DNA of 64,000 bases, taken from NCBI GenBank assembly GCA_965197905.1, contig CBDAOB010000004.1, forward strand, positions 544,001 through 608,000. The letters are read 5' to 3'. A program made the translations under genes and the position numbers. Below the pieces are notes generated by a model. That model saw only the letters and a program-made list of their open reading frames with translations. It made no database searches and had not been told where the DNA came from. The DNA comes from Candidatus Latescibacterota bacterium (GTDB taxonomy: Bacteria; Latescibacterota; UBA2968; UBA8231). How positions within the stretch are numbered: position 1 is the stretch's first letter; each line of letters begins with the position of its first letter. This document shows positions 27,518-54,865 of this stretch, in pieces.

Positions 27518-27594
27518 TGGTGCACCCAGTAGGAGTCGAACCCACAACCTCCTGATCCGTAGTCAGGTGCTCTATCCAATTGAGCTATAGGTGC
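27518..27594 (-). tRNA. tRNA-Arg(ACG)
   Basis: Reverse complement GCACCTATAGCTCAATTGGATAGAGCACCTGAC-TACGGA-TCAGG...GTTCGACTCCTACTGGGTGCACCA. Confidence 0.95.
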
Positions 27595-39878: not shown

Positions 39879-41107
39879 GGTCTACTTAATCACAGCGACG
39901 ACCTTCTCCTGCTTCGTATCGCCGGCATTGACGACGACGATGTAGAGCCCGCTGGAAACAGTGTTGCGGTCTTCGTCCCTTCCGTCCCACTCGAATGACG
40001 CTCTGCCTGGCGCCAGCGCACGGTCGCGGACGATCACCCGCTCCAAGCGACCTGAGGCGTTGTAGACGCGAACGGTCACATTCGCCGGACCGGTGAGATC
40101 GAACGAAATGTCGGTCTCCCTCTTGAACCTCGTGCCGCCTGGCGCGAAGGCTCGAGGCTGACAGTCCAATTGCCGAATAGCGAGCTTGCCTACCTGGGTA
40201 CGCAGATCCTGGAAGATCGCGAAAGTACCCAACGCGTCGATCGCCGTGGTCACTTCCCGGCTGCTGGCATCTGCGACTCCACCTACCCGACCCCATGCGC
40301 CGCCGGACAACGCGAACACGGCGAGCTTCGAGGGATCCCCTACTGCTGCTGATTCATCGCCGGAATAAGCAACGGTCAGTGTCACCGGTTTGCGCAGGGT
40401 CGCACCCGGCGCCGAGATTGCGAAGGCTCGGCTGATTCGGGTCAGCTCGGAGTCCTGCACATTGCGTTTCGCCGGAGGATCGGCCGCAGGACGAATCAGG
40501 ACCTCGCTGGTCCCTCCTTCCAGCGCGTTGGGAGGGAAGTATAGCTCGACGCTGCCTTCCGGATTCGTGATGGTGCCACCCAGCGCAGCATTGGCAAGTC
40601 GTGCCGCCGTGCGGAAACGAAAGTTGAACCCGCTCTCCGCCAGCTGCCCAAGCACCTCTCTTGACATCTCGATTTGGTACTCCGTGAACGCCTGCAGTCC
40701 CCCTTCTGGCGAAAAGGAGATCGTGGTCCCGCTGTCATCGGCTCCGAATCCTGTAATCGGCACGACCTCTTCAGCTGCCTCGAGATCTCCGAGGGCGCGG
40801 GCAAGCAGCAGAAAGTCGGTCTGCAGTTGCCGCGCCACACTCCCCGAGAAAACCACCTGGATAGTCGGCGTCGCGGATGAGACTCCTTCCTCATCCGCTT
40901 CGGGTCGAGTCGCCACCACTTCGGGAATCTGCGTGCGGAAGTCCCACTGACGATCTGGCCTAGCGGCCCCCAAGGGACCGTACAACCTGGAGGTGACGAG
41001 CGCCTGGTAGGCGTTGCCGGACAGGAAATCGATTTCCGGGAACAACACCGTAAACGTGGTTGCGTCGTAGCCGAAAGCGAGCTTGGGTCAAATGGTGTGT
41101 AAACGAC

Positions 41108-44100
41108 TCAGGCGGCAATCTTCTTCCTTTGCGCGATGTGTGATCCATTTTCGTAGCGCACATTGGCGTACACGTCAGCCATAAGATGCGGTGCACGGAG
41201 TCGGCGAAATCGTTTCTCGGCCACCATCAGTACCCGCCATATGAGGGCGGTGGCATTGGCCACCTTCTTGTAGCGCTTGGCCGCATTGGTTCGCAGCCGT
41301 ACCGAAGCGAAGGGACTTTCAACGACGTTGGTAGTGCGCAGGTGTTGCCAGTGGGCCTCGGGAAAGTCGTAGAATGCCACCATACGGTCCCAATCGCGCT
41401 CGAGGATATCTACGGCGTCTGGGCATTCGCGGTGGAATCGTTTGGCGAATTGATCGCGGCGTTTGGTCGCGTCTTGACGGGTCGGCGCGTAGGGGATCTG
41501 TGTCAGCAGTTGCCGCGCTTCGGCCTGCACGCGTTTAGGCAGCTTATCCAACACGTTCAGGAGGCGGTGATTCCAGCACCGCTGTTCCGCCGTCTCCGGC
41601 CAGACCTGCGCCAGGGCGGCCCAAATACCCAGGTGCCCATCCGCCACCAACAACTTCGCCGCGCTCAGTCCGCGGTCACGCAAATCGCGCAGCACGCTCG
41701 TCCACGACTCCTTCGATTCGCGATAGCCTGGGACAATCGTCAAGACTTCCTTGCGCCCATCGCTCATGGCGCCGATGACCACCAGGAGAGCGGCCTTTTC
41801 TTTCTCGAGCCCGGCTTTGACGTAGTAGGGTCGGACCGGAGCGCCCTGCGCCACACGCGTGATGTGGGTTTCTCCGGCCCGCCCTCCGAACCGGACGTGC
41901 GCGTTACCACGCATCCGGCTCTCCACAAGGTGCCGTGTGACCGCAGAGTCTCATCCGGTTGTCGCAGGCCAGGGAGAAGGGATCCGCGCCGATCGATAGC
42001 GGTAACGAGTCACTGCTACTTCGCCGACGTTGTAAAGAGCAATCCCGTCCTCGGTGGGCCACCATCCTGGCAGGTAGCGGCGTTTCAGCTTCCTCCAATT
42101 AAAGCGCGGGTGCTTGCGGCGCAGCCAATGCACTACGCGGCGCCAAGTGAAGCCCCGCACGTAGTTGAAAGTGGCCTTCGACACCCCGTACTGAAAGTAG
42201 TTGGCCCACCCCCGCAACACCGGATTGAGTTGGCGCAGAAGGCTCTTCAACGGCCTCTGCCGACCCGTTCTCGTGACTGCGCGCACCGTGCTCTTCAACC
42301 GGGCCAGAGATTCCTTTCTTGGCCACGTATAGATGCGTGCGCCAACCGGGCCCGGTTTCCGTCGCTTCTGAATGCGAAAACCCAGGAAATCGAAGCCACG
42401 GCTGATGTGCGTGATGGCGGTCTTCGTCTCCGACAGGTGCAGACCCATGGGGGTGAGAGTCACCCCCGCTTGGTCGCGCAGGTCATACGCTGCAGCTTCG
42501 GTGCCCGCCACCAGCAGCACGAAATCGTCAGCGTAACGGACAAGCCGACAAGTCGGTAGCCCCTTTCGCCGATGCGCTTGTCGCGCACTGGAGGTAGCGC
42601 CCACCTTTCTCCAGACCTCAGTGAAATAATCGTCGAGGACGGATAAGGCGATATTTGCCACCAGCGGTGAGAGAATACCGCCTTGCGGAGTGCCCGAAGT
42701 GCTTTCTTGCAACACCGATTGTTCCGTGAGGACACCGGCCTTGCAGAACGCTTTTACAAGCCTCAGAACATGCTTATCACCGATACGTCGACGCACGCGG
42801 TCCAAGAGGGCTGCGTGATCAATCTCATCGAAACAAGCACGGATATCGCCCTCCACCACCCACTCATAAGAGCGGGAGCAGAATTGATGAATCTCGGCGA
42901 TGGCGTCCTGAGCCCGCCGATTCGGGCGGAAGCCGTAGGAGCACGGCTTGAAGTCCGCTTCGAAGATCGGTTCGAGCACCAGCTTGAGTGCGGCTTGGAC
43001 CACTCGGTCCCGAGCGGTTGGGATGCCGAGCCGGCGCTTCTTCGTTGTGCCAGGTTTCGGAATCAACCGCTCGCGTACGGGCAGAGGCCGGAAACTGCGG
43101 GTCTTCAGATCAACCCGCACCTCGGCGAGAAAGGCCTCCTCGCCGCGTTCCGTCTCCACAGAGTAGGCCGTTTGTCCGTCCACTCCGGCCGAACGAGCAC
43201 CCTTGTTGCTGCGCACCCGACGCCAGGCTACACTCAAAAACGCCGGGTCACACACCAGGTTGAACAGGTCGTCGAAGCACTTGCTTCGATCCTCTACAGC
43301 CCAACGGTGCAGTTTGGTCTGGATTTCCAGTACTCGATTACGGGCTTGTTCTGCCTCGGGCCACGAAGCGCTGGCATTCACCGGCGTCCTCCTGTTTTTC
43401 CAGTACCCCACTGCGCAACTTGCTGCCTCCCTTCGCCATGTAAGCGGCTTTCCCGCTCGCGGACTACTACAGAGGCTCCGTCCCTTGCCAAGCCCCACAG
43501 CGGACAGCGCGCTGCCCCGATAACGGTCGGACTCGGCTCGGTTCCCACGTTCACCATGAACCGTTTGACGGGGGAGGTGCCCAGCTTTTCCCCTGCAACT
43601 TCGCCTTGGGTACGCCGCAGGCATTCTCCAAGGCCTCTGCTTCGGTGGGTATCACACCTCCCCAGAGTCGCAGTCGGTCATATATCCGACCACGTGCGTT
43701 GCGTACCAACCCTTATCCACCAGGTTTGGGTTGGCGGGCCGCTAAAGGGGGTTCCATCACTGGTTCACTTCGGGTTACACCATTCCGTCTTGCTTGCCAG
43801 ACGTGGAGTGTCTGGAGGTGCCACTCCACTCTGTCGTTGTCGAGGCTGCTTCCACCTTCCCCTGCGCTCCCAGGGTCAGGCTGCCTCCAGCTTCAACGGG
43901 CTGCTGCGACAGCCCGTTGGTGGGTCCTTGCATCCCACCCGGTTCTCTGGCGCCTCGTGGCGCACGATCCCGTCGGCCCAGGCGTACACCAGCTCGCACT
44001 CATCCAGCCGTCGGCTGCGCCAGGCGTGGTATTCGACGATCCACTTATCCCGCAAACGCGCGATTGAGGACGGCGACAGCGGCGCTCCCGCTCCCAGCAG

Positions 44101-44487
44101 GCCGCGCAGCGCCAGCTCGAAGTCACCTTGAGACAGACCGTGCAGATACAGTTCCGGCAACAGCTGACCCACCTCCTTCGTACGCCGCGCAAACAGCGGC
44201 AGAATGGCGCTCTCGAAGCGCTCTTCCAGACCTCGCACGCGTGGACGTTTTACCTCGATCGTGCCCGAGGTACAGGACAGTCGCCGCCGCTTCCCGTAGC
44301 CATTTCGATAGCCGCCGGGTGCGTCCAACGGGGCCTGACGCTGGTAGCGCGACCGCCCCAGCACCTGCGTCACTTCTTCATCCAAAACCGACTGCATCAA
44401 AGACTGAATCTGCGACCGCGTCCACGCTTCCAACGTTTCGAACGTGGGCATGGACATTTCCGCGGTGCTCAGCTTAGGTTGTGGCAT
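41108..44487 (-). CDS. IS256 transposase, two exons (44487-43966 and 41824-41108), 412 aa when spliced
   Basis: YRNGY, WADGI|YVK, VADG, QRCWNH, RTTNVVES motifs; in frame after intron removal. Confidence 0.9.
41825..43965 (-). mobile_element. Group II intron with RT/maturase ORF
   Basis: 5' GTGCG; domain V GAGCCGGATGCGTGGTAACGCGCACGTCCGGTTC; 3' end GACCCTAC. Confidence 0.93.
41951..43381 (-). CDS. ltrA: Group II intron reverse transcriptase/maturase, no endonuclease domain
   Basis: AGVDG, RLGIPT, SYGFRP, GTPQGG, RYADD, LRGWANYF; GTG start after an AGGAGG RBS. Confidence 0.93.
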   Translation of the reverse strand: MNASASWPEAEQARNRVLEIQTKLHRWAVEDRSKCFDDLFNLVCDPAFLSVAWRRVRSNKGARSAGVDGQTAYSVETERGEEAFLAEVRVDLKTRSFRPLPVRERLIPKPGTTKKRRLGIPTARDRVVQAALKLVLEPIFEADFKPCSYGFRPNRRAQDAIAEIHQFCSRSYEWVVEGDIRACFDEIDHAALLDRVRRRIGDKHVLRLVKAFCKAGVLTEQSVLQESTSGTPQGGILSPLVANIALSVLDDYFTEVWRKVGATSSARQAHRRKGLPTCRLVRYADDFVLLVAGTEAAAYDLRDQAGVTLTPMGLHLSETKTAITHISRGFDFLGFRIQKRRKPGPVGARIYTWPRKESLARLKSTVRAVTRTGRQRPLKSLLRQLNPVLRGWANYFQYGVSKATFNYVRGFTWRRVVHWLRRKHPRFNWRKLKRRYLPGWWPTEDGIALYNVGEVAVTRYRYRSARIPSPWPATTG

Positions 44488-45095
44488 GGCGATTCTCCTC
44501 TTCCTGCCGGGACAGCCCCGGCGCGTGTAATGTCTAATTACAAAGGAAGGGTAGGATCGCCTTCTGTGTATTTCCACACCTTTTGATTATAGCTCCCGAA
44601 AGCGGAGGCCTCCAAAGGCAGCGAATCCCCACTCTGACTGAGTCGCAGATTCTGGGGTGTAATCAGATCCTGGCTGATCGGGCCCGTAAACACCACCTGC
44701 ACCCGCTGTCGACCAGACGTTATGGTTGCTTCATCTCCCGGAACGGTGCGGGTGATATCCGGAATGCGTGTGCTGAACTCCCAGGCGAAATCCCCCACGT
44801 CCTGCTGCAGAGGTCCGCCGGCGACGGACGCGATCTGCAAGCGGTAGTTCGTCCCTGCCCGCAGCCCTCCTACGGGGGCGAGCGTCACGGTGTTGGTGTT
44901 GGAATTGTAAGCGGGTCCACCCCCCACGAGGTCGACGGCAATACCCTGCTGCAACATTGAGACGTTGCCCGTCAGAAGTAGGGCAGTTTCATCCAGGGGG
45001 CTGTCGAATACCGCGGTGACCGACATTGAAAGATCTGCGATCGAGGTGTCGCCAGACGCAGGAGCAACACTCGCCAGGGCTGGCACGTCTGTCTG

Positions 45096-46656
45096 GAACT
45101 GCCAGGACACCGGGATGTCGGGACCAAGAGGCCCACTGACTCCAGGGGCGATCTGAATGTTATAGCGACTACCTACCTGCCAACCGCTCGCCGGTGCGAG
45201 TCCGTAGCGCCCCGCTCCCCGGTCTACCGGATCGCCGGACCGCAGCGGCAAATTCACGCCTTCACGCGCGATTATGAAGTTTTCGGCGACCACCTGATCC
45301 GCATCGATCGGCACCGTGAACTGGACCGTAGCTTCGACCTGGCTGACCGCGACGTCGACGGCGTTCGAGTCAGGCTCCACATCGACCACTCGCGGTATGG
45401 CGGTATCGAAACGCCAGGAGATGGACTGACCGAGACCCAGGGGCCCACTCACTCCGGGAGCGATACGTACGCGGTAGGCGCTGCCCGCGTTCCAGCCAGC
45501 TTCGGGCGCAAAAGCGTAGCGAGCGTCCCCCCGATCTACCGGATCTCCGGACCGCAACGGCAGATTCACCCCGTCGCGTGCGATGGTGAAGTTTTCGGCG
45601 ACCACCTGATCCGCATCGATCGGCACCGTGAACTGGACCGTAGCTTCAATCTGGCTGACCGGGACGTCGACAGCGTTCGAATCGGGTTCCACATCGACCA
45701 CTCGCGGTATGGCGGTATCGAAACGCCAGGAGATGGGCTGACCGAGACCCAGGGGCCCACTCACCCCGGGAGCGATGCGCACGCGGTAGGCACTACCCGC
45801 GTTCCAGCCAGCTTCGGGCGCAAAAGCGTAGCGACCGTCCCCCCGGTCTACCGGATCTCCGGACCGTAGCGGCAGGTTCACCCCGTCGCGTGCGATGGTG
45901 AAGTTTTCGGCGACCACCTGATCCGCATCGATCGGCACCGTGAACTGGACCGTAGCTTCAATCTGGCTGACCGGGACGTCGACAGCGTTTGAATCGGGTT
46001 CCACATCGACCACTCGCGGTATGGCGGTATCGAAACGCCAGGAGATGGGCTGACCGAGACCCAGGGGCCCACTCACCCCGGGAGCGATGCGCACGCGGTA
46101 GGCGCTGCCTGCGTTCCAGCCAGCTTCAGGCGCAAAAGCGTAGCGAGCGTCCCCCCGATCTACAGGATCACCGGGCCGCAACGGCAGGTTCACCCCGTCG
46201 CGCGAGATAGTGAAGTTTTCGGCGACCACCTGATCCGCATCGATCGGCACCGTGAACTGGACCGTAGCTTCGACCTGGCTGACCGAGACATCGACGGCGT
46301 TCGAGTCGGGCTCCACATCGACCACTCGAGGTATCGCGGTCTCGAAACGCCAGGAGATGGGCTGGTCTTGTCCCAGGGGCCCACTCACCCCGGGAGCTAT
46401 GCGCACGCGGTAGGCGCTACCCGCGTTCCATCCAGCTTCGGGCGCGAGCCCGTAACGACCGTCCCCCCGGTCTACCGGATCACCGGGACGCAGGGTTAGG
46501 AGCTCGGCGCCGCGCAAGAGTTGGAAGTTGTCCGCTGTCAGCTTGTCTGCATCGATCGGAACGCTGAACAGGACGGATGCCTCGTCCAGATCAACGGTGA
46601 TTCCCTGGGCATCCGCCTCGGGAGTGAGCGAAACCACTCGCGGAACGGCCGTGCTG
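45096..46656 (-). repeat. Tandem 312-bp (104-aa) Ig-domain repeats, about five units
   Basis: GAAACGCCAGGAG recurs at 45408, 45720, 46032 and 46344; central units nearly identical. Confidence 0.92.
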
Positions 46657-49541
46657 AAGCGCAGCGCGTACGGACCATCTCTTTGCGGTCCTCCGATGGC
46701 GCGGGGCAGGCGCACTGTATAGCTGCTTCCAGCGCGCAATCCCCCCTGCGCCTCGATCCGAACCGTCTGGGTTTCGGGGTTGTATTCTAGGGTTTGGATA
46801 GCACGTTGCTCGCCACCTTCCAGAACGGCCACAGCGTCCGCGGTCAACGCGCTGCCGTCGACCGGATTGTCGAACTGAAGAACCAAGGCCGTCGTCGAGG
46901 CCAGCACGGTCGTGTCCCCTTCGGCCGGCACCGATCCGGACAGATTTGGAACGGGTGTCTGGAAGCTCCAGCTGTAGTCGCCCTCCCCCAGTCTCAGGGT
47001 CCCGCCGAGAAGACTCGCCAGCACAACCTGGTAACGCGTTCCGGGTTTCAGACCGTCGACTAGGGCGAAACTGAGGGTATTGTTCTCCGCGCTGAAGACC
47101 GGCGTCTCCAATAATGGCTGCGCTTCGTCCTCGGCCAGGACCTGAACGGCATTCGGATCGGCCGCCAGAAGCCCGGTCAGGATGGGTGTATCGAACGTGG
47201 CCGTCAGCCGGCCGTCCTCCAGGGAGGTTCCAATCTCGTTGTCGGGCGGCACCGTAGACAACAACGCTGGAACGCGGGTGCTGAAGCGTACAATGCTGGC
47301 ATTGTCTGGACGATTCCCCACCAGATCAGCGATGGCCGCCGAAACCTCGACCTCATAGGTCGAACCCGGGAGCAATCCCCCTTCCGGCAGCAGAGTTACC
47401 CTGCGCGCATCCGCATCGTAGGAAGGATCTGTCAGTTGTGCTAGGGGGGAAACCCCCAGGCGGATGACAAAATTGTCGGCCGTGACCCCAAGGGGATCGA
47501 TCGGTTCCGAAAAGGTGAGAGTGACCTGGCTTGTGGTTGCTGGGATCTCGCTGGCTCCATCCGAGGGCTCGCTCGCTATTAATCGCGGCGTCTCCGTGTC
47601 TACCAGGAAAACATCGGTCGAGTCGAACCGGGCCAATGCGTTGAGTCGTCGATCTCGCGCGCCGCTCACCGAAAGTGTCGCGTTTCCTGAAGGATGCGCG
47701 CTGGTGATCGTAAGCTCGCCCGTCCAGGTGTCTGCAGTGAACTGCAACTGCTGGAAAGCGATCACGCTATCTCCGATTGAAGCCGTCACCGCGGGCGGAC
47801 TCGTGGGGTCGAGGCCCGAATGTTCATCTAGAATCTGCAGCGCCAGGGTGAGGGTCTGTCCAATGCCTACCTGGTTCTTACTCAGGTTTACCCCAGCAAT
47901 AGTTGGCGCGATGGTATCGACGATAAAGCTGGCCGGATCGCTCCAGTCGGACCGGGCCCAACCGTCATCCACCGCCTGCACGGACCAGTAGTAGGTTCCG
48001 CTGGGCAACCCGTTCAAGTCCTGGAAGAGATTGTTTCCGGCGGATCCCGGACCGACCGCCTGGTTGCCCGAGAGAACATTGTCGGCGCCGCGGGAGGTTC
48101 CCACACGGACATTGTAGGTGAGGCTCTGTGGCGTCGAGTCGTTGTCGTCCAGTCCCAGCTCCCAGGTCAGACGGACGGTGCTTGCAGAATCGACGGCACC
48201 CACGACTATGGGTACCCGGGGATTGGTGTTGCGATTGAACTGCGATTCCAGGTTGTCGTTGATCGTCGTGCTGGGCGAGAACCCCGCGTCGCGACCGGCG
48301 GAAAAGAGATCCAGATCTCCGTCGCCATCGTGGTCGACCGGTGCGAGCGAGCTGAAATCGACCCCTGTGAGGACAAGGATGTTCTCGATCTCAAATCCTG
48401 AGTCGGTATTTTCGTAGATCTGCAGGAAGGGGGCCTCGCCATTGTTGCCCGCCAACACGAGATCCAGGTCCTGATCGTTGTCGTAATCTCCCCAGACAAT
48501 GTCGCCTCCCCGCATTCCGGTAAGTTGAACACCGTCCAGGAGTGTAAAATCTCCATTGCCGTCGTTGGTGTAGATCTCCGTGGTGACACCGGTCTCGGCA
48601 ATGCCGCCGACAGCGAGGTCCATGTCGCCGTCCCCATCCACATCTCCCCACGCCAGGTCGCTGGACTCCAACGCTGTCAGGGTTTGTTCGACGTTGATCA
48701 ATGACCCGGACTCGTTGCGCGCGAGAATGAAGCGACGGGCGCCGCTGACAGCACTGCCATTTGCGGCCACGTCGAGGTCACCGTCTCCATCCATATCCGC
48801 GAAGGCTACTTCGCCGTTGTTGAGGCCCTCCAAACCAAAGTCGCCGTCTTCGAAATCTCCGAGACCGTCGTTGATCAGTACGCGGGTGTAGGATTGTATC
48901 ACCCCGTCGATGACATCGTCACTCTGCCCCAACACGGCGAGATCCAGATCGCCATCATTGTCCACATCCCCCCAATCCGCCGAGCTTGATGACAGATTTT
49001 GTAGCTCGGAGCCGAGGCTGAGGTTCCATTGGCCGCCGTCCGAATCCGCCAGGTAGAGCGCGCCGCCCCGATTCTCAAAGCTATCCTCGCCTAACACGAC
49101 CAGATCGAGGTCACCATCGTTGTCCGCGTCCCCCCATGCGGCGTCGCCGTTTTGCAGCGGTTGTATATTGGCGTCGTTTGTGATGGAGAGGCCTGAAGTA
49201 GCATTCTCATAGACCAGTGACTGGGCTTCGCCGCTTCGATTTTGACCGGTGATGGCTAAATCCACATCGCCGTCGTTGTCGTAGTCTCCCCAGTCCATTG
49301 CACTCGATTGCAGGGACCGGAGGATTTGATTGGAAGAGACGAACTGCTGGACGTTTAGAATATCCTCCTGCGACCATTCCGAGCGTGCGAGCCCGCCGTC
49401 TATCGTCTGAACGGACCAGAAGTAGGTGTCCCCTGCGCCAGGGGGCGCTGTAGAACCTTGGTGGTCTTGAATCCGGCATTTCCGATTTCCAGCGGAATTT
49501 CGCCCGATACGATGTCGTTGCCGCCGGAAACGGTCCCGATG

Positions 49542-50290
49542 GTAGGGTCGAGAACTGGCGCGCCAGCCTTAGGGTTCGGTGGGTTCCCCATGGCTTTCGC
49601 CATAGCCCTCAGTCCGACTCCCATCGCTACGTTTCCAGTTCCCGCCGCCTCAAACCGGACGTGCGGATCTCCCGCATCCGGCTTCCCGACGAACGTCACA
49701 TCCAGGCACACGCCACAAGGACTTCACCTGGTAGTCAAGCTGCTTCCGATGCATACTAGTCTTACTGCTGGAGGCAATAGGCTCACGCCACTCTCCAACC
49801 CTCTGCACTTCCGCAGCATGTCCGAAGTCAGGCCCCTTCCCTCCACCGGAGTTACCCGGCTTCCTCGGTACTACGCGCCTGTCCGCCACCTCATCCAGCC
49901 CAGTCTGGCCCTCGCGGGTTACCGGTTGGAGGCACTCGCTGCTTCCACCGGATGAGGCTTCCCGTGTTGCGCCACATCTCCTCTTACACACATGCTGTCG
50001 CCACTACCCCGGCGGAACAGCTGGGTGCGCTTGTCGCTCGACTTCCCCAGCTGCAGCGGCCTTCCCTGGTTTACGGGCAGGTCGGCTTCCGCATTACACT
50101 TTTCGAGGCCTGCTCAGCGTTTACTCACGTTACGGCCTGTGTGCTCGCCAAGTCGCCCAAGGCGACCCTCTACACCGGAGGCTTCAGCGGCTTCGTCGCC
50201 TCCACCACTGCTCCGATTGCTACCGGCTGGAGCGACCCTTGCCGGGTGGGATTCGCACCCACTGAAGATGTGCGCCTTAGCACGGCGCAC
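49542..50290 (-). ncRNA. ORF-less group II intron (749 nt)
   Basis: 5' GTGCG; domain V AAGCCGGATGCGGGAGATCCGCACGTCCGGTTT; 3' GACCCTAC; removal restores the host frame. Confidence 0.9.
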
Positions 50291-51788
50291 CGCAAATTGT
50301 ATGTTAGTGTTGAACTCTCGGCGTCATTTCCGGGACCCCAGCTGAACAGCACGCTCTCGCTGGTAACCCTGGCGGAATTTAGCCGTTGCGGTGGCGACGG
50401 CGCCCCGTTGGTGACCGTAGTACCCACGTTCGAGTAGAGCGTGCTGAAGCGCTGACCGTCAGCGTCAACGCCGGCCAGGAGCAAATCTGCCTTGCCGTCC
50501 GCATCGTAATCAGACCAGGCGGTCGCGCCTCCGGCTAGACCCGAAAGATTGGTTTCATCCGACGCACCGGTTACCTGGCCTTCATCGTTGCGAAACACGA
50601 ACGCCTGATACACGGACAGGATTGAGAGGCCCGACGCCGCCAGATCCAGATCACCGTCATTGTCGTAATCGATCCACGCGAGACGCCCAGCAACGCGCCG
50701 AGTGGTTGGCAGCGAAAACGACTCGTCGAGGTTGAATACGCCCGTGGGCCGGTTTCGATAGATCTGGAAAACGGCGTTCCAAGAATTGTCCCGACCCGAT
50801 ATAGCAAGATCGGAGTTTCCGTCGCCGTCATAGTCTCCCCATGCAACCGAGCCACCTTTGACGGGGGTCGAAACGTTTACAGTCGCATCGAGCGTTAGAG
50901 ACCCCACCGGTTCATTCTTGTAAAATTCGGTGACGGAACCAAGGCCACCCGAGGTTGTGACGTTGTTGCCCGATAAAATCAAGTCCAGATCACCATCGTT
51001 GTCGTAATCCCCCCAATCGGCATCGCCATTGTGGACGCTGACCAGATTCTCAGAGTTCACCTGGTCTTGTTCGAGAAGGCCACTGGTATTGGTATAAAGG
51101 CGGGTCAGGGACGTTCCGTTTTCTTCCATCCCCAGCACCAGCAAATCGAGATCGCCATCGTTGTCCGCATCTCCCCACTCAATGGTCGCGTAACGAACTC
51201 CGCGGAGGGTAGGGCTCCCAGTCTCGTCTATCTGTGTTCGATCGACACTCAAGATTCGCTCGCCGGGACCAGACGCTCCGTCTTCGTTCACATAAAGGCG
51301 CAGACTCTCCTCGTTTTGGACGTCCCAGCCCGCGACAGCCAGATCCCGGTCGCCGTCGTTGTCGTAGTCTCCCCACGCCACGTCACCATGATATACACCG
51401 ACCAGCTGAACCTGTGCCAAATCTTGAAAGAGGAGTGACTCGTCGTTGCGGTAGATTCTGGCGATGCGTGCGCATGCACCATTTTCGTCCACGATCTCGC
51501 CGACGATGGCCAGATCCGGATCGCCGTCGTTGTCGTAGTCCGACCATGAAGCCTGCCCGGCCCAAACGCCCGGAAGCGATTGCGGGGTGGACTCGAGGCT
51601 TTGAGAACCGATCGGGACTGCGTAAGCGAGCAACCCGATCAGTAGCGAGCGCAGCAAGATGGACATGGAGTTACTGTTGTGTGTAAAGTTTCGCGCCGAA
51701 TTGGCGAAAAGCAGGGAAGCTTTTCCGTTGCCGTCCCAAGTATAGCTAGGGCGGAATGATAAGCCAAGAATCATTTCCAGGGGCTGAA

Positions 51789-52334
51789 TCATAGCGCTTC
51801 CACGTCGTCCATATCGAGCTCGGCAGACACCGCGGTATTGAGAATCGTCACATTGAGCACGATGCGAAACGATTCCTTGCGTTTGGAGACCTTGCCGGTG
51901 ACGCCGCTCAGCGGCCCCCTGACAACTCGCACATGCCTGCCCCTCTTGAGCAAGGGGTATAGGACCAGATCGGTACCGCTGGAGGTTGCCCGATGTATGT
52001 TCGCCAACTCAGCTAGCAGTCGCCCCTGATCGATGACCTCAATGGTTCGCACCAGGTACCCGCTGCGCAACACGGCGAGCCGTTCCTCCCGGCTGCAGCA
52101 ACCGAACAAATATCCCGGAAGCAACGGGACATCGAAGCTGTATTTCCGCTTGCCGGATTGTCCGCTGCTCTTGCGGAGCGGTAGGTAATGTCTGACGTCC
52201 GCATCGAAGCAAGTGCTGGCCACTTTTTTTTCGCACCTTGGACGGGAGTGGAAGACATACCACTCTCGCTCGCCGTCAGCTGGGGTGAAAAGCCGGGCAA
52301 CAGCATCCTCTGGGGAAAGAGCGGCGTCCGTCAG
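51789..52334 (-). CDS. NusG paralogue (UpxY/RfaH-like antiterminator)
   Basis: WYVFHSRPRCEKKV, PLLPGYLF, KOW motif VRVVRGPLSGVTG; start probably CTG at 52334. Confidence 0.85.
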   Translation of the reverse strand: MTDAALSPEDAVARLFTPADGEREWYVFHSRPRCEKKVASTCFDADVRHYLPLRKSSGQSGKRKYSFDVPLLPGYLFGCCSREERLAVLRSGYLVRTIEVIDQGRLLAELANIHRATSSGTDLVLYPLLKRGRHVRVVRGPLSGVTGKVSKRKESFRIVLNVTILNTAVSAELDMDDVEAL

Positions 52335-54651: not shown

Positions 54652-54728
54652 TGGGGTGAGTGACGGGAATTGAACCCGCGGCCTCCTGGGCCACAACCAG
54701 GTGCTCTAACCAACTGAGCTACACCCAC
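54652..54728 (-). tRNA. tRNA-His(GUG)
   Basis: GTGGGTGTAGCTCAGTTGGTTAGAGCACCTGG-TTGTGGC-CCAGG...CTCACCCCA. Confidence 0.95.
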
Positions 54729-54788
54729 CACACTATGGTTTGCCGGCAAGTAAGCGTTTTGAATATCCGCTGAAGACGTGTGGCATCA

Positions 54789-54865
54789 TGGCGTGCCCAG
54801 CAGGATTCGAACCTGCGACCGGCTGCTTAGAAGGCAGCTGCTCTATCCAGCTGAGCTATGGGCAC
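54789..54865 (-). tRNA. tRNA-Arg(UCU)
   Basis: GTGCCCATAGCTCAGCTGGATAGAGCAGCTGC-CTTCTAA-GCAGC...GGGCACGCCA. Confidence 0.95.

Follow-up and report, generated by a model that had tools for sequence, protein, structure and literature searches.

Group II introns without an ORF are rare in bacteria, and a related RT is nearly always present in the genome that carries them, according to the accessible part of PMC4424553. In Thermosynechococcus elongatus the proliferation of such introns is described as driven in trans (PMC2882425, partial text). Integron attC sites are described as targets of group IIC introns, which insert into the attC bottom strand and whose resulting antisense orientation is thought to limit spread (PMC3001079, partial text). 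Sonbol and Siam report, in the portion of their paper that could be consulted, three IIB copies (CL1 and E) beside attC sites, in cassette direction and with no conserved target, and they cite one IIC intron in an attC top strand (PMC7923331). Our literature search, for which most subscription papers lay outside reach, found no class F or ORF-less intron homing into attC by EBS pairing.

Here we describe a 749-nt ORF-less intron within a stretch of 64,000 nt (the window; contig CBDAOB010000004.1, positions 544,001 to 608,000) from a Candidatus Latescibacterota genome (GCA_965197905.1). The original prediction, made from the letters of the window, regarded such an intron as unusual, which holds for bacteria generally (PMC4424553, partial text), but trans-mobilised expansions are known (PMC2882425, partial text) and ORF-less introns of 725-790 nt are frequent in this phylum. 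We propose that this mini-intron, present as 13 near-identical copies mostly in attC top strands, probably spreads by retrohoming with an RT likely supplied in trans by an RT-encoding sibling, and that the copy in the window is likely off-target. Targeting of attC, which is the main biology, is not visible from the window alone.

Intron boundaries and fold

The element extends from 50290 to 49542 on the minus strand and its ends read GTGCG...CCCTAC. Its parts are listed below in window coordinates, with intron numbering as nt.

49542-50290, minus strand: ORF-less class F (IIB-type) group II intron, 749 nt (Rfam and consensus fold)
49969-50275, minus strand: domain I, intron nt 16-322 (compensatory changes in the 36-relative consensus fold)
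49885-49961, minus strand: domain II, nt 330-406 (consensus fold)
49829-49881, minus strand: domain III, nt 410-462 (consensus fold), carrying bases diagnostic of the ORF-less lineage
49685-49828, minus strand: domain IV remnant, a DIVa-type hairpin over a decayed RT start (sequence comparison)
49652-49684, minus strand: domain V, nt 607-639, with AGC triad at 49683-49681, GAGA loop and AC bulge (consensus fold)
49545-49648, minus strand: domain VI, nt 643-746, in which the bulged A (49548) lies 7 nt from the 3′ end (consensus fold)
50096-50099, minus strand: EBS2 core GUGU, nt 192-195, pairing with the exon at about -14 to -11, the ACA beside the attC R'' box
50070-50075, minus strand: EBS1 CGUAAA, nt 216-221, complementary to TTTRCG, the attC L'' box
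50004, minus strand: EBS3, G287, pairing with the +1 C
50291-50306, minus strand: target look-alike in the host gene, TAAC...TTTGCG, with IBS2 at about 50301-50304, IBS1 at 50291-50296 and IBS3 the C at 49541

Both ends are exact in 12 full genome copies, in agreement with the 749-nt element, GTGCG 5′ end and AC 3′ end first proposed, and removal of the intron joins the split Arg codon CG^C (the caret marks the junction) to give TLTYNLRIGT in the host frame, as had been stated. The suggested check against Rfam group II domain models returned group-II-D1D4-4 (RF02003) at 106.8 bits over 50125-50264, above the cut-off of 49, and the domain V/VI model at 39.2 bits (E 6.6e-5), just below its cut-off of 40. 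A plain MFE fold of the 749 nt was no better than shuffles (z -1.33), and an alignment-based consensus fold was used in its place, built from 36 non-redundant relatives for the 5′ part and 32 for the 3′ part. Compensatory changes support most helices of this fold, and domains I-III, V and VI of the mini-intron fit the covariation model: deviations occur at 2 of 240 conserved 5′ columns, these two forming one compensatory pair, and at 5 of 66 conserved 3′ columns. Domain V, described beforehand as intact, carries the AGC triad and AC bulge and keeps 13/13 consensus pairs. These features, with the further group II hallmarks of a GUGYG 5′ end, an AY 3′ end and a domain VI that carries a bulged A, identify the element as an ORF-less group II intron of class F (IIB-type), its class label being that of the relatives of its sibling's RT (below). 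No RT reading frame lies within the 749 nt; the domain IV remnant noticed at the outset is present, but its VSLLPP and MHRKQL segments lie in different frames and do not form the one stretch that had been read.

Copies in the genome and the RT-encoding sibling

The source genome (6.69 Mb in 5 contigs, here C1, C2 and so on; 91% complete) was searched for further copies and for an RT-encoding parent, and yielded 13 near-identical copies and one RT-encoding sibling. Twelve copies are full (nine identical, two with one substitution, one at 99.7%) and one is cut at 700 nt. The sibling (C3:1187174-1189158, 1985 nt) encodes a 441-aa RT with an intact YADD motif, in which the domains found are RVT_1 and GIIM, with no nuclease domain; the remaining 13 RT matches in the genome are 30-32% identical to it. 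A mini copy occupies the 5′ junction of the sibling, forming a tandem at C3:1186425-1189158 that is preceded by a HicA-type toxin gene and the left arm of an attC.

Close relatives of the sibling RT are labelled Ca. Latescibacterota, and four close plasmid relatives (55-62% identical) are all listed as F(g2-g5) in the supplementary table of Miura 2022 (PMC8919778, partial text). The class F label was transferred from these plasmid matches, 4/4 of which were checked by coordinates, with no tree, and it applies to the sibling RT, the mini-intron having none. Assignment of the sibling RT to class E was considered and set aside, as its relatives are labelled F in that same source.

The combination found here, namely no RT ORF, a related RT intron in the genome and copies at EBS-matched sites, is that of a TeI3-type non-autonomous intron. 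The early suggestion of a non-autonomous, trans-mobilised element has gained good support from the 13 near-identical copies, the YADD-intact sibling RT and the kept DIVa hairpin, and on these sequence features the mini-intron is likely to be mobilised in trans.

Exon recognition

At the window copy, EBS1 CGUAAA pairs with TTTGCG through 5 Watson-Crick pairs and 1 G-U pair, exactly the 6/6 pairing of 50075-50070 with UUUGCG that had been put forward. Across the genome, EBS1 forms at least 5 of 6 pairs at 13/13 copies (6/6 at 9 copies), EBS2 forms 3-4 pairs near -14 to -11 at 13/13 sites, and the +1 base is C after 12/12 intact 3′ ends, the base after the RT intron being taken for the tandem copy. 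By comparison, at least 5 EBS1 pairs plus a +1 C occur at 0.3% of random positions. Within the wider family, EBS3 and the first 3′ exon base form a Watson-Crick pair in 22 of 31 relatives and a wobble in 6 more, and EBS1 and EBS2 vary in step with their targets, by inspection. All three pairings of IIB-type exon recognition (EBS1-IBS1, EBS2-IBS2 and EBS3-IBS3) are present. The copies share the target consensus TAACA-n4/5-GTTTRCG^C, which by its sequence is the left arm of a predicted integron attC site.

Integron attC sites as targets

A profile built from the source genome's own sites matched 69 attC sites at E<=1e-3, most of which belong to arrays on C1, C2 and C3. These predicted sites show R''-L''...L'-R' inverted arms and cassette spacing, in a genome that encodes a full-length integron integrase (367 bits, cut-off 265; C3:204281-205219). 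The large arrays, of about 69 sites in two sequence subfamilies, lie at C2:3-36 kb, C3:289-363 kb and C1:172-195 kb. The full intI is distant from them, lying about 84 kb from the C3 array, while a half intI at C2:37267-37707 adjoins one array; no attI was located in the source genome.

Eight mini copies occupy attC sites or what remains of them, in each case in the top strand and just past the L'' box. Six of these are inside attC sites at E<=1e-3 and share one alignment column, the top strand and the direction of the cassette genes; two follow attC left-arm remnants that match weakly (E 1.3 and 2.8). One of these two weak-match copies has the same upstream 50 nt as another copy and hence probably reflects duplication of a cassette, not an independent insertion. 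The remaining 5 of 13 copies lie outside attC, namely the window copy, those in flgE-like, nuoH-like and ankyrin-repeat genes, and one in an intergenic gap.

Occupancy follows the EBS1 match. Among 65 attC sites (the 69 less three with too little aligned sequence and one that holds another intron), 6 of the 17 with at least 5 EBS1 pairs and a +1 C are filled, against 0 of 48 others (Fisher p=1.5e-4), and 11 of the 17 matching sites are empty. Furthermore, attC sites were filled more often than other sites of equal EBS match under a loosest rule (7/12 vs 5/2839), an intermediate rule (7/10 vs 2/109) and a strictest rule (4/6 vs 2/19, p=0.015), a comparison in which the TA criterion was picked after the sites had been seen and one attC was counted because it was occupied.

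This excess is what would be expected if recognition of the attC hairpin, or of a single strand exposed by the hairpin, were added to base-pairing, as in IIC-attC introns, a reading to which the intermediate and strictest comparisons lend weight, as does the presence in the other attC subfamily of another ORF-less intron, unrelated to the first. We nevertheless consider a hairpin contribution rather doubtful: five of the 13 copies occupy non-attC sites, attC sites that fold but mismatch EBS1 are never filled (0/48), selection against genic insertions combined with strand bias could yield the same excess, and the post hoc TA criterion and the attC counted for its occupancy weaken the comparison itself. 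The intron departs from the group IIC-attC type in its AGC (not CGC) triad, its EBS2 and the class F labels of its RT relatives, and from the IIC-attC insertion mode in entering the top strand after L'' in cassette direction and not the bottom strand at TTGT/T. Base-pairing of EBS1 and EBS2 with the attC left arm is the reading that we carry forward.

Strand was examined for 14 entries, the 13 mini copies plus the second ORF-less intron. Every one is on the G-rich strand at four sizes of analysis window, in a count where the underlying GC skew is slight (0.0003-0.048) and the copies are grouped in about 8 regions.

Two further introns occur near these arrays. The second ORF-less group II intron is 827 nt long (C3:348603-349429, minus strand), is unrelated to the mini-intron and lies in the top strand of a subfamily-B attC, with which an EBS1-like loop GCACGG pairs 6/6. 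It has a long domain VI type in common with the mini-intron and is single-copy, though about ten array sites hold its target; no cognate RT is evident for it among the genome's RT matches. The other is a full-length RT-encoding group II intron in an attC-rich region (C1:175770-177800), not inserted in attC, whose RT is 30% identical to the class F RT.

The host surface-protein gene

The window copy interrupts a surface-protein gene of FG-GAP/Big_5/FlgD_ig type at the look-alike TAACATACAATTTGCG^C, and is likely an off-target insertion in this attC-like sequence. The gene survives in the following parts.

50291-51792, minus strand: 5′ part of the FG-GAP/Ig-like surface-protein gene
49400-49541, minus strand: 3′ exon to a premature stop, two extra bases near 49430 shifting the frame
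44538-49298, minus strand: middle part with FG-GAP, fn3 and Big_5 repeats, in a different frame from the spliced 5′ part
41071-44603, minus strand: IS256-family element splitting the gene, with 8-bp target duplications at 44596-44603 and 41071-41078
39882-41070, minus strand: 3′ end with Big_5, ZU5 and FlgD_ig, cut off by the IS256 element

After intron removal the host frame ends at 547 aa (expected >2000; open frames of orthologues in other genera are mostly about 1400-2500 aa) owing to two additional bases some 110 nt beyond the junction, both G when compared with the orthologue in a related genome, G002. An assembly slip was considered as the source of this frameshift and rejected, as a contig from run X1, which may be the source run, covers 48304-49498 without differences. 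In run X2 the two additional bases are missing, and the contig from that run extends 23 nt into the intron (below our 31-letter bar). In run X5, from a related strain, 49539 is joined to 50291, an empty site with its own -2 and +1 changes nearby.

The intron site is empty in G002, in a further genome, G001, and in 7 more distant orthologue loci, and the IS256 element is absent from the G002 orthologue. In intron-free relatives the gene looks independently broken, the G002 orthologue by a deletion of about 226 bp and run X5 by a net gain of one base, a pattern which suggests, from the sequences compared, that this gene is decaying across the genus. An unrelated group II intron that encodes an RT (43965-41825) interrupts the IS256 element in turn, and about 12 copies of this RT occur in the genome. 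Elsewhere in the window lie four tRNA genes (985-1058, 27521-27594 and others at 54655-54865), those at 985 and 27521 being near-identical with differing anticodon loops.

Among the other copies outside attC, that in the flgE-like gene (C5:2488115-2488863) has a separate frame break downstream, that in the nuoH-like gene (C1:64879-65627; named from its translation) has one upstream, and the ankyrin-repeat gene (C3:919022-919770; likewise named from its translation) is open for 670 aa after removal; the last copy lies in a gap between genes.

That the intron is a domesticated switch, whose RT-dependent splicing in trans gates the surface protein, appears very unlikely. The window copy does lie in sense orientation with good EBS/IBS pairing, 4 of the 5 non-attC copies are in sense within coding genes, the ankyrin gene opens for those 670 aa once its intron is removed, and run X2, with 23 nt of intron and no extra bases, leaves room for a strain with both the intron and an intact local frame; the dnaN introns of Trichodesmium provide a precedent (PMC12584367, partial text). 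However, the spliced host frame ends at 547 aa and the gene is split by the IS256 element, run X5, G002, G001 and the 7 more distant loci all have an empty site, other frame breaks affect 3 of 4 intron-bearing genes, and the identity of the copies indicates that insertion was recent. RNA run X9, one of four RNA runs, covers the intron without differences and contains no exon-exon joint; its exon cover is almost nil, a shortage that does not count against splicing. The original prediction that the intron gates the host gene is accordingly not supported: the frameshift and the IS256 element break the gene whether it is spliced or not, a related strain has an empty site, and the G002 orthologue is broken as well. 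We read the host gene as a tolerated casualty, not a regulated partner, and the intron in it as an ordinary, recent selfish insertion into a decaying gene.

Relatives in other genomes and mosaic structure

A search of the phylum found matches in 21 of 168 genomes, with close sisters (>90%) in G002 and another genome, G020, alone, so that the attC sub-lineage looks narrow within the genomes searched. The RT-encoding sisters in G002 and G020 (RT 82-83% identical) occupy the same attC position: of 4 full copies, 2 are in complete attC sites, 1 in a partial attC and 1 in a look-alike. Among 80 genome loci with close RT relatives, several of which lack one or both intron ends, attC-type flanks occur at three 82-83% sisters alone; these may duplicate sites counted elsewhere and were not added to the counts. 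Two further loci flagged by the attC pattern (L112 and L147) were rejected, as they do not look like attC. More distant class F introns aim at other, unrelated targets.

A metagenome scan with the 3′-end motif, 80 of whose 120 stretches were analysed, mostly recovered another RT class, 26-49% identical where an RT was found; a crude attC flag appeared on 3 of the 80, none of which resembles this lineage in attC, and the scan says nothing on the breadth of the attC lineage. At these metagenome loci (L177-L256; same 3′-end motif, distant RT), the 3′ half of domain V and the domain VI of another intron very often come next. Judged by this arrangement, such introns would very often insert into domain V of other group II introns, a habit that could explain the unusual domain VI of the attC lineage.

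Other Latescibacterota genomes commonly contain ORF-less class F-like introns, 630-940 nt long, whose EBS sets vary along with the targets they match and whose domain IV remnants are of at least two kinds. Against this background, the segments of the mini-intron differ in their nearest relatives. Its nt 1-225 are identical to the genome's RT sibling, including 8/8 diagnostic sites, an identity that at the tandem may be a polishing artefact. By contrast, nt 226-400 are nearer the G002/G020 sisters (87% vs 83% to its own sibling), from which domains V-VI differ by 7% (93% identity), and domain IV (nt 468-600) is 77-80% identical to ORF-less introns of two other genomes, G052 and G111, against 29-64% to its own sibling; of 323 loci compared, those that match domain IV best are ORF-less introns. 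Since domain IV is nearest to ORF-less introns elsewhere while nt 1-225 are identical to its own sibling, the element is, on these comparisons, a mosaic in which an ORF-less part that predates the source genome was joined to a local targeting module. Recognition of the mini-intron by the sibling RT is an assumption on our part, in view of their 15-17% divergence over nt 226-467 and the foreign domain IV.

We extend this mosaic origin tentatively, as a possibility that falls somewhat short of even chances, to a long-lived ORF-less backbone found across families of the phylum and retargeted by domain I swaps with resident RT introns. Here it would have taken an attC-left-arm module and become the dominant attC parasite (13 copies vs 1 RT copy), 749 nt within an attC hairpin would lock cassettes in place, and the second, unrelated ORF-less intron would independently read the other attC subfamily.

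Discussion

Retrohoming in trans into attC top strands would proceed as follows. The intron RNA would be transcribed along with the cassette or host gene and spliced with the maturase of the sibling, the DIVa hairpin having been kept. The target would be found by EBS base-pairing to the attC left arm, and reverse splicing would then take place into a single-stranded lagging-strand template, an entry route suggested by the lack of an endonuclease domain in the RT and by the G-rich strand on which every copy is found. Group II introns without an endonuclease are described as priming at the replication fork (PMC4424553, partial text). The attC bottom strand is reported on the leading template in 25 of 30 sedentary integrons (PMC5371416, partial text), which would leave the top strand on the exposed lagging template. 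Cassette arrays would thus present many exposed sense-direction targets, from which the intron could spread again. Passive spread of a now immobile intron, by cassette duplication or DNA recombination, appears very unlikely, for although one truncated copy has its upstream 50 nt in common with another copy, the flanks of the 12 other copies are all different and each nonetheless pairs with EBS1 and carries a +1 C, and five copies lie outside any array.

In the papers that we found, several of them accessible in part, attC targeting is a IIC speciality that works through a bottom-strand DNA hairpin, whereas this genome points to a sequence-programmed top-strand route from another class. What makes the system of interest is this apparent homing of a class F lineage into attC top strands, coupled with a pairing rule open to test, and the element's mosaic origin. 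An intron in the top strand would ride cassette transcripts, and the rule that occupancy tracks the EBS1 match to the L'' box is directly testable. For integron dynamics, the predicted effects are blocked excision and homologous repeats within an array. The mosaic suggests that old lineages which swap targeting domains can exist among non-autonomous group II introns, in the manner of MITE-like elements outliving their helpers.

Set against described systems, the mini-intron resembles, in its presumed dependence on another intron's RT, the ORF-less TeI3 of T. elongatus, which is mobilised by TeI4 driver RTs. According to the accessible text of that study (PMC2882425), TeI3/TeI4 are CL/IIB1 introns with an endonuclease, TeI3 targets RT starts, IS elements and intergenic sites, and TeI3 arose by one deletion from a resident intron; the mini-intron is class F without an endonuclease, targets integron attC sites and has a domain IV foreign to the local RT copy. 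Another described ORF-less intron, C.te.I1 of Clostridium tetani, is likewise tied to surface-layer genes, but, in the available portions of its descriptions (PMC4424553, PMC3919590), it has no related RT in its genome and is alternatively spliced in vivo, whereas the mini-intron is multi-copy, has an RT sibling and sits in a broken host gene.

As regards the target, IIC-attC introns such as S.ma.I2 likewise insert repeatedly into attC and use some other targets, yet introns of that type combine a IIC RNA with a class C RT and enter the bottom strand at TTGT/T in R'', antisense to the cassettes (PMC3001079, PMC7923331; partial texts), while the mini-intron has the AGC triad, EBS2 and class F RT relatives and enters the top strand after L'', in sense with the cassettes. 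The halophile introns UHB.I2 (CL1) and H.ha.F1/F2 (class E) are also IIB-type and lie in cassette arrays in cassette direction, but are, as far as the consulted part of PMC7923331 describes them, three isolated and partly fragmentary copies after attC sites with other RT classes; here 8 copies of one element share one position inside attC and a tested pairing rule. Finally, the class F (g2-g5) introns of Miura 2022 (PMC8919778, partial text) have the same ribozyme fold, EBS geometry and TA-preceded IBS2 near -14 as the mini-intron. The other class F members examined have unrelated targets, and it is the attC-reading EBS set and the longer domain VI that mark the small sub-lineage to which the mini-intron belongs.
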